Positions 17,407 through 17,841 of a DNA stretch of 49,347 nt are shown piece by piece. Origin of the DNA: an uncultured Ignavibacteriota bacterium. Lineage in GTDB: Bacteria; Bacteroidota; Ignavibacteria; UBA10030; UBA8401. Position 1 is the stretch's first letter. Each line of letters opens with the position of its first letter. The stretch is from the NCBI GenBank assembly GCA_903958625.1, contig CAJBTU010000425.1, forward strand, positions 1 to 49,347. Direction: 5' to 3'. Below the pieces are notes generated by a model. It did not search any database, had not been told where the DNA came from, and worked only from the letters and a program-made list of their open reading frames with translations. The position numbers and the translations under genes were made by a program.

Positions 17407-17479
17407 GGGCCGTTAGCTCAGCTGGGAGAGCGCTACAATGGCATTGTAGAGGTCAGCGGTTCGATCCCGCTACGGTCCA
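17407..17479 (+). tRNA. tRNA-Ala(GGC)
   Basis: GGGCCGT/ACGGTCC acceptor, TAGCTCAG, CTACA-ATGGCAT-TGTAG anticodon arm, GGTTCGATCC T-arm. Confidence 0.95.
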
Positions 17480-17483
17480 CAAG

Positions 17484-17729
17484 ATGTGTTTCGTATATAT
17501 TCTTCAAAGCATTAAATCCGGCAAATTCTATGTTGGTCATGCCTTGGATCTTCCAAAGAGGCTCAACCATCATAATAGCGGATATTCCAAGTCGACAAAA
17601 TCAGGTGTTCCGTGGGAAATCGTTCATACCGAAGAATACCAAACTCGATCTGATGCGATGAAGAGAGAATATGAAATTAAGGCAATGAAAAGCAGAACAT
17701 ACATCCTTCATCTGATAAAAAAGAATTAA
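17484..17729 (+). CDS. Small stand-alone GIY-YIG nuclease (81 aa)
   Basis: FVYILQS...FYVG, KRLNHHNSG, TKSGVPW, AMKREYEIK; starts 4 nt after the tRNA. Confidence 0.88.
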   Translation: MCFVYILQSIKSGKFYVGHALDLPKRLNHHNSGYSKSTKSGVPWEIVHTEEYQTRSDAMKREYEIKAMKSRTYILHLIKKN

Positions 17730-17730
17730 T

Positions 17731-17841
17731 AGCTGGGAGACCTTCCCGATGTCCCGGCAACGGGACATCGGGAAGGTCAGCGGTTGAATGTTTTTTTGTG
17801 AAATCCCGCTCTGCGGGGTTCGATCCCGCTACGGTCCACAA
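17731..17841 (+). repeat. Degenerate tRNA-Ala copy with palindrome insertions, ending in a 25-bp direct repeat of the tRNA 3' end
   Basis: AGCTGGGAGA + 18-bp GCAA-capped hairpin (17739-17778) + AGCGGTT + insert containing CCCGC-TCT-GCGGG + GGTTCGATCCCGCTACGGTCCACAA (17817-17841, identical to 17458-17482). Confidence 0.85.

Follow-up and report, generated by a model that had tools for sequence, protein, structure and literature searches.

The DNA studied here, referred to as the window, is the 49,347-nucleotide contig CAJBTU010000425.1 of an uncultured Ignavibacteriota bacterium, and its segment 17484–17841 is one unit, about 360 bp long, of a cassette that links a small GIY-YIG nuclease gene to a tRNA gene. 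The unit, located directly downstream of a tRNA-Ala gene, consists of an open reading frame (ORF) for 81 amino acids and a degenerate tRNA-like element. The same architecture recurs next to tRNA genes of 15 anticodons, is arranged in arrays, appears to differ in copy number by whole units, and is represented by pseudogenes as well as by ORFs kept under purifying selection. With confidence slightly above even, we read it as a selfish, recombination-driven nuclease cassette, for which tRNA genes are homology arms and probable targets. The family to which it belongs is apparently large and undescribed; no description of a tRNA-linked mini GIY-YIG cassette was found in the open-access papers and preprints searched.

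The cassette is anchored to a functional tRNA-Ala(GGC) gene with the G3:U70 pair (17407–17479, plus strand, as are all features below unless stated), predicted by Aragorn and followed by CAA (17480–17482) in place of an encoded CCA. A scan of the whole window at the Rfam gathering threshold skipped this gene; since the local score against RF00005 is 59.6 bits, with a cutoff of 29, the omission reflects filtering rather than any flaw in the tRNA. The first-pass annotation of this DNA reported a 25-nt direct repeat spanning the tRNA 3' end, and the sequence, GGTTCGATCCCGCTACGGTCCACAA, is indeed present in exact copies at 17458–17482 and 17817–17841. No third copy was found in the window at up to three mismatches, and 100 shuffles gave 0 matches. 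The GIY-YIG gene that the same annotation placed between the copies was confirmed as well: the ORF 17484–17729 is the only sizeable one there, and its ATG lies 4 nt past the discriminator base of the tRNA. What did not survive is the idea of a 25-bp att-like boundary. The true repeat measures 33 nt, and its first copy (17450–17482) includes the variable loop, T arm, acceptor 3' strand, discriminator and CAA. It is matched perfectly by the second copy once 17782–17816 are deleted from the latter, the 25-nt form of which (17817–17841) comprises the T loop, the 3' strand of the T stem, the acceptor 3' strand and CAA. The suspicion that the repeat is a misassembly was ruled out by the agreement of several independent assemblies. 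The module is the same in four of them (the window and L001–L003, numbers with L denoting loci), except for two bases at 17741 and 17743 in L003, and the 633-nt intergenic stretch is 100% identical in L087 and L088, differs by 1 base in L090 and is partially covered by L089.

The real boundary of the unit is a whole degenerate tRNA copy with a conserved hairpin, and the second repeat copy is, as the alignment indicates, the 3' part of this copy of the neighboring tRNA gene. The pseudo-tRNA-Ala is 112 nt long (17730–17841), 5'-truncated and anticodon-less, and the same module is present in L003–L006. It starts directly after the TAA stop codon with a D-arm remnant, TAGCTGGGAGA (17730–17740), which matches 17420–17429 of the tRNA and occurs in L003 in a GAGCG form. 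In the place of the anticodon arm, there is a perfect 18-bp hairpin with a GCAA loop and the core TCCCGAT..ATCGGGA (17739–17778), followed by AGGTCAGCGGTT, which represents the variable loop and the 5' strand of the T stem. At its 5' end, the pseudo-tRNA is overwritten by the end of the ORF, and what was the anticodon arm has become a GC-rich hairpin. Between AGGTCAGCGGTT and the second repeat copy, a strain-specific insertion of 35 nt (17782–17816), containing the hairpin CCCGC-tct-GCGGG and a run of seven T, interrupts the T loop; it is missing from the sister species (L006) and is skipped by a contig of sequencing run X8. When 17700–17850 is folded as single-stranded RNA, it is more stable than its shuffled versions (z = -5.45), and searching 17730–17841 against Rfam 15 gives chance-level matches only (E<=10). 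Farther downstream (17866–17937), an older, decayed 3' fragment of tRNA-Ala (ATTGTTAAGGTCAGCGGGT), 73% identical to the tRNA, is followed by the inverted repeat TCCCTGCC...GGCAGGGA; it is kept in L006 and L096 and is probably the remnant of an earlier unit.

A duplicated tRNA 3' end raises the question of an integrase, since the 3' ends of tRNA genes are classical targets of tyrosine integrases (PMC9897764 and general knowledge), and islands and prophages likewise leave a tRNA 3' part duplicated around foreign DNA. The repeats would then be attL and attR of an island inserted in the 3' end of tRNA-Ala, of which a single cargo gene is left. We consider this origin very improbable and reject it because no recombinase is nearby, in line with the lack of an integrase noticed in the first-pass annotation: the neighboring genes code for other functions (alpha-amylase, NAGPA, family-B polymerase (DNA_pol_B), OmpA, permease and AMP-binding proteins), and no recombinase was found within about 9 kb of the cassette in the window or in the loci with inspected gene calls (L001–L005 and L087–L096). 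Unlike an integrase island, the cassette has a duplicate whose homology to the tRNA reaches as far as the D arm and in which another structure takes the position of the anticodon arm; in L036 and L022, the duplication even covers the tRNA trailer with its terminator, to or near the start of the ORF. In more than 60 species, the repeats enclose only this ORF of about 250 nt, and the units, only 320–470 bp in size, form tandem arrays with a period of 320–470 nt.

The protein encoded by the cassette matches the GIY-YIG family PF01541 over residues 1–70 (E=1.3e-16, 61 bits with a cutoff of 22.6) and contains the motif line VYI...FYVG...R...HHN...E. The catalytic residues (both motif tyrosines, the arginine and the metal-binding glutamate) are conserved: in 10 relatives, no substitution occurs at Y5, G18, R26, H30, N31 or E62, and Y16 is almost unchanged. 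A phmmer search of the PDB returned only 1ZG2 (BH0048, E=1e-8) and 1YWL (EF2693). The AlphaFold2 model (predicted local distance difference test score, 88.7) has the order beta-beta-alpha-beta-alpha-alpha, with a three-stranded sheet and helices. The first ten Foldseek matches are UPF0213 and Slx1 nuclease domains, the latter with template-modeling (TM) scores of 0.64–0.71 and 26–32% identity; the similarity to I-TevI (1LN0, 1MK0) and UvrC is weaker (E>0.1). The protein is therefore a member of the stand-alone Slx1/UPF0213 (YhbQ-like) branch of the GIY-YIG superfamily, and its best matches in both sequence and structure are BH0048, EF2693 and eukaryotic Slx1. Slx1 itself requires Slx4 and has a RING domain, and E. 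coli yhbQ is not known to lie beside a tRNA gene. The minimal GIY-YIG domain is known as the non-eukaryote Slx1 group, and the survey describing it does not mention tRNA-gene linkage, pseudo-tRNAs or arrays for the Slx1-like group (PMC1564403). A profile search detected 18,209 clusters at E<=1e-3 and 4,408 clusters (50% identity) at E<=1e-10. No PADLOC family matches the nuclease, no specific family for the cassette was found in Rfam, PADLOC or NCBIfam, and PHROGs gave only a weak homing-endonuclease match. In many database members of the family, the N- or C-terminal extensions are translated tRNA or hairpin, e.g., AQLGERLNGIQEV.GSIP, GFES and GRASR/GERP. The ratio of nonsynonymous to synonymous substitution rates (dN/dS) among syntenic orthologues is 0.13–0.18, similar to that of the neighboring NAGPA gene (0.12), which indicates that a working protein is maintained.

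The linkage with tRNA genes is not a peculiarity of the window. A scan with one genome per species detected at least 526 relatives, from which 80 loci were kept and 74 loci or arrays could be evaluated. A tRNA gene on the same strand ends within 150 nt upstream of the nuclease gene in 57/74 of them and within 400 nt in 61/74, whereas a chance of about 0.1% per gene follows from a rough estimate of about 45 tRNAs per 3 Mb; tRNA fragments are present upstream in 11 of the 13 remaining loci. In a control set of 31 more distant relatives on viral contigs, no direct tRNA adjacency was observed. The association with tRNA genes removes the case of a single-copy, vertically inherited YhbQ-like orthologue without tRNA association, which the first-pass annotation named as a possible refutation, as the protein is YhbQ-like but tRNA-linked. 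The tRNAs involved represent 15 anticodons, with Ala-GGC (22), Asn-GTT (13) and Asp-GTC (7) being the most frequent, followed by Val, Met, Pro, Leu, Arg, Cys, Phe and Gly. At least nine phylum-level groups are represented (Ignavibacteria, Bacteroidota, Cloacimonadota, Marinimicrobia, Zixibacteria, Patescibacteria, Desulfobacterota, Verrucomicrobiota and Nitrospirota), with the reservation that the taxonomy of metagenome-assembled genomes (MAGs) with short contigs may mislead, as illustrated by an 85% identical Val-TAC pair labeled Ignavibacteria and Zixibacteria. Carriers available in culture include Melioribacter sp. OK-6-Me (L032), Flavobacterium soyae (L066), Flavobacterium sp. CF108 (L055) and Pontibacter locisalis (L048). 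In loci of Ala, Asp, Val, Met, Asn, Leu, Arg, Gly, Phe and Cys type, the stop codon is followed by a second version of the cognate tRNA that lacks the 5' end, and the nearest protein in another genome has the same tRNA identity in 53/64 cases, compared to 22% expected by chance.

Almost every pseudo-tRNA contains a hairpin with the stem base [T/C]CC[C/G]G...C[C/G]GG[A/G], and the hairpin class is kept in about 60 loci, at a density of 1.81 per kb near the GIY-YIG genes versus 0.074 per kb elsewhere in the same loci (25-fold). Among 59 unique versions, the sixth and seventh pairs covary, the sixth being A-T in 31, C-G in 19 and T-A in 8. In most cases, the hairpin takes the position of the anticodon arm; some loci of Asp, Asn, Pro, Phe and Cys type have it in the T arm instead, and some copies have it in both. 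The possibility that it is an inserted foreign palindrome was partly rejected, as genuine tRNAs have the same anticodon stems: TCCCG-ATGGCAT-CGGGA in tRNA-Ala of L010 and TCCGG-CTGTTAA-CCGGA in tRNA-Asn of L037, L069, L070 and L079. For this reason, the hairpin is best seen as an ancestral Ala- or Asn-type anticodon arm, the loop of which would have been scrambled into a longer stem. The Ala- or Asn-type hairpin is retained even where the D and T arms of the pseudo-tRNA match another local tRNA (Met, Val, Asp, Leu, Gly or Arg). Such mosaic pseudo-tRNAs are the expected trace of recombination via the conserved D and T arms, and this agrees with the breakpoints of tRNA homology at about 24–26 and 44; the others cluster at about 35, 11 and 56–58. 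Independent hairpin-forming insertions after C56 are found in the window, L004, L005, L007 and L064.

Not all tRNA-like arrays contain the nuclease ORF. Upstream of genuine tRNAs, ORF-less tandem arrays are located at L059:1990–2450 (Asn, at least five units), L065:1800–2320 (Gly-GCC, at least four), L034:2100–2460 (Met, three) and L005:1–66 (Ala); their units, 117–121 nt long, consist of the native leader and a 3'-truncated tRNA copy with a cassette-type hairpin, ending in or just before the T loop. The IMG/VR contig L133 contains two full-length pseudo-tRNA-Pro with the hairpin, a GIY-YIG ORF, a genuine tRNA-Pro(TGG) and another pseudo-tRNA, and this order of parts shows that an array can begin with something other than the real tRNA. 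In tRNA-rich viral contigs of the same database (L129, L131, L132, L135 and L136, with 6–26 tRNA genes each), genuine tRNAs Arg-CCT, Pro-TGG, Val-TAC and Phe-GAA share the GAGCG-TCCCG...CGGGA-AGGT stem with the cassette hairpin. In a different explanation, the tRNA-like RNA, or its DNA, would be the product and the nuclease its amplifier. As an anticodon-less tRNA mimic, the product might be a decoy or antidote to toxins or defences that attack tRNA, or it might partner the nuclease as an RNA, with breaks setting the copy number as SegB does for phage tRNA-Tyr. The ORF-less arrays of leader and tRNA-like copy, the covariation within the conserved stem, the anticodon stem shared by phage-array tRNAs, and the amplification of tRNA genes by SegB as an anti-defence measure all speak for it. 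We nevertheless hold it to be quite improbable, because most copies are T-arm-truncated or lack the 5' strand of the acceptor, there is no Rfam match for the element and no PADLOC match for the protein, and stem mismatches of the G-U and A-C types are equally frequent (4 versus 4). These counts make RNA- and DNA-level selection on the hairpin indistinguishable and give no sign of the former.

At the locus of the window, the cassette is old. The gene order alpha-amylase, tRNA-Ala(GGC), GIY-YIG and NAGPA is common to the window, L004, L005 and L006, each with a pseudo-tRNA, and the nuclease shares 69% identity with that of L004 (a 2.9-Mb MAG contig), 73% with L005 and 89% with L006. Taken together with the dN/dS values, this synteny indicates that the cassette is long-lived here and not a recent invader. 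The first-pass annotation inferred a tiny selfish element; the candidate copy-number forms, the pseudogenes, the tRNA linkage and the lack of an integrase agree with it. The persistence of the gene in at least four syntenic lineages also brings in a domesticated host gene for a small, structure-specific nuclease of a tRNA operon, whose cellular task might be, e.g., to process R-loops, cruciforms or stalled forks where tRNA genes are heavily transcribed. In such a case, the pseudo-tRNA would be an element for mRNA processing or 3' stabilization, and arrays and losses would be passive. This explanation gains from the conserved synteny, from a dN/dS close to that of NAGPA, from subfamilies that follow tRNA identity, from the Slx1-like fold and from the highly structured 3' region. 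It is hard to reconcile with the patchy distribution over distant phyla and 15 anticodons, with the lack of an acceptor stem in many pseudo-tRNAs, which makes processing by RNase P or RNase Z doubtful, and with the signs of gain, loss and exchange described below, and we regard it as rather unlikely.

Arrays of 2–5 ORFs were found in ten loci, with 3–5 copies in L069, L050 and L057, and L009 contains four identical 356-nt units with a terminator at the end. In 24/80 loci, the gene is placed within 400 nt of a contig end, as repeats would lead one to expect. Single in-frame stops make the gene a pseudogene in 5 of about 80 species (L006, L017, L023, L035 and L082). In one of them, the sister species, which has the NAGPA protein P0012 and whose sequencing runs were compared with L006, the copy number itself seems to vary. 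L091 and L006 have one unit with a TAA stop at codon 8 (L006:2519–2524); the stop is polymorphic, with CAA in runs X13 and X25, and the intact variant in X25 reaches about 2.7x the depth of the flank. The depth of the module relative to the flank is about 0.6 in X21, 1.0 in X23 and 2.7 in X25. L093–L095 break exactly at the 32-nt repeat, and a contig of X27 closes on itself with a period of 324, as would a tandem array or a circle. In L096, the native anticodon arm, the repeat and the downstream flank equal L091 minus exactly 324 nt, with 119/119 identical positions in the flank. These data are suggestive of candidate alleles with 0, 1 and about 3 copies, differing by 324-nt units. The empty-site alleles anticipated in the first-pass annotation are thus represented by a candidate in the sister species and by none in the species of the window, whose repeat contains the 35-nt insertion and for which no read or contig joint marks a precise loss of the cassette. 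A metagenome scan for empty alleles with the N-terminus of the amylase gave only the already known contig, and the comparison relied on NAGPA homologues instead. The nuclease gene also shows hints of exchange between lineages, given that its synonymous divergence is below that of the amylase gene: between the window and L006 it is 0.25, with an amylase minimum of 0.264 and median of 0.396 (70 windows), and between the window and L004 it is 0.657 versus an amylase median of 0.838. The identical-copy arrays, single-stop pseudogenes, the candidate empty allele together with the form at about 2.7x depth, and the divergence below that of the flanking gene are not what would be predicted for a host gene.

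For the selfish, recombination-driven cassette, the following mechanism can be proposed. The nuclease ORF would be expressed from the tRNA transcript, and the protein would cut tRNA-gene DNA, likeliest at the T loop around positions 56/57 and/or in the anticodon arm, which are recurrent breakpoints of the tRNA-derived pieces. For repair of the break, an allele containing the cassette would be the template and its real tRNA and pseudo-tRNA the two homology arms, and the repair would copy the ORF into the empty allele, i.e., homing without an intron, as in phage SegB. Unequal recombination between tRNA and pseudo-tRNA could subsequently gain or delete units. Rare jumps to new tRNA species might occur via conserved D- and T-arm sequences, and they would account for the Ala-type (TCCCG) or Asn-type (TCCGG) hairpin within pseudo-tRNAs that otherwise resemble the local tRNA.

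Several points weigh against this proposal. For all members of the family, we infer the cut, its position and the homing step. The protein is a single 81-residue domain, without a DNA-binding module like those with which SegB and I-TevI recognize long sites, and the intact tRNA beside the cassette would stay a target, so that the avoidance of self-cutting is unexplained. As genuine tRNA-Ala and tRNA-Asn genes have the same stems, the hairpin could simply be a mutated anticodon arm that was passed on and has no function. Synteny in at least four diverged lineages, combined with purifying selection, fits a host function too. The candidate empty-site allele comes from one k=31 Logan contig, ERR4193665_38703, over the 32-nt repeat and from contig depths rather than raw reads. 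Finally, expression of the cassette, including transcription from the tRNA promoter as assumed in the first-pass annotation, is weakly supported by one low-depth metatranscriptome contig of 384 nt across 17502–17885, and neighboring genes have patchy 3–6x contigs of similar depth.

The closest documented system is, by analogy, SegB of the phages T4 and T6. SegB is a GIY-YIG homing endonuclease of the T4 tRNA cluster, recognizing a 27-bp site with a T-psi-C motif and homing without an intron (PMC2330249). In T6, it drives a recombination-dependent tandem amplification of the tRNA-Tyr and segB unit, at whose junction the 3' end of segB meets the 5' end of the tRNA (PMC13096335). The cassettes share with it the location of a GIY-YIG gene among tRNA genes and the junction topology of the arrays. 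The differences concern the protein, as the phage enzyme has a wild-type C-terminus beyond the catalytic domain and the cassette product is an 81-residue catalytic domain of the Slx1/UPF0213 branch from bacterial chromosomes, and the unit, which measures about 320–470 bp and always includes an anticodon-disabled pseudo-tRNA with a conserved hairpin. SegB is roughly 220 residues long and has a DNA-binding region. With homing endonucleases of the I-TevI type, the cassette shares the catalytic fold and the selfish logic; however, it has neither an intron nor a DNA-binding domain, and its target gene is uninterrupted. What is new in relation to known homing-endonuclease-like tRNA elements is the minimal Slx1-type enzyme, the location in bacterial chromosomes, the anticodon-disabled pseudo-tRNA and the very small unit.

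There is also a resemblance to repetitive extragenic palindromic (REP) sequences and miniature inverted-repeat transposable elements. The xCCGAT..ATCGGx hairpin recurs in two intergenic palindromic elements of the window (4556–4640 and 43733–43779), which differ from the cassette by having no ORF or adjacent tRNA. One of them reads GAGATGCTTCGACGCG-TCCCGAT-tgtaaaac-ATCGGGA-CTTGCTCAGCATGAC and the other TTCATCCTGAGCAAA-TGCCGAT-gttgttt-ATCGGCA-TGCGCCGAAGGATGAA. In both, there are short stretches reminiscent of a D arm (GCTCAG) and of a T loop (GGTTCGA); comparable stretches are located 3' of the cassette in L005 and L029, and the elements may be tRNA-derived miniature repeats. A bolder generalization, which we put forward only tentatively and with real doubt, is that the units of about 320–470 bp form a class of their own among mobile cassettes, minimal and autonomous. 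In each, a structure-specific Slx1-like nuclease would be combined with its own cis-acting, tRNA-shaped hairpin substrate. The universally conserved D and T arms of tRNA genes would be the landing pads on which the cassettes home, amplify in tandem and occasionally jump between tRNA species and phyla. Such cassettes may also act in trans and mobilize tRNA-like arrays that lack an ORF, as well as REP-like hairpin repeats.

Among the other features of the locus, a conserved tRNA leader, TTTG ... TATATTTAG (17366–17396), is kept in L004 and L006. It resembles the Bacteroidota -33/-7 promoter consensus and could possibly promote transcription of the tRNA and perhaps of the cassette; a sigma-70 scan found no promoter on the plus strand. 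Directly downstream of the NAGPA gene, the family-B DNA polymerase gene (PF00136, E=3e-33) is located on the minus strand (19123–21408) and is syntenic in related contigs.

If the proposed reading is correct, then a large lineage among the stand-alone Slx1/UPF0213 nucleases of bacteria is selfish. For the UPF0213 family, structures have been solved since 2005, and no assigned biology was found. The link between tRNA genes and homing nucleases of the SegB type would extend from T-even phages to the bacterial chromosomes of many phyla, and recurrent tRNA pseudogenes, assembly breaks and mis-called ORFs would be explained. The cassette would also represent a tiny natural system, composed of an 81-residue enzyme and a DNA element of about 110 nt, in which to study how breaks induce tandem amplification and how homology guides insertion at tRNA genes.

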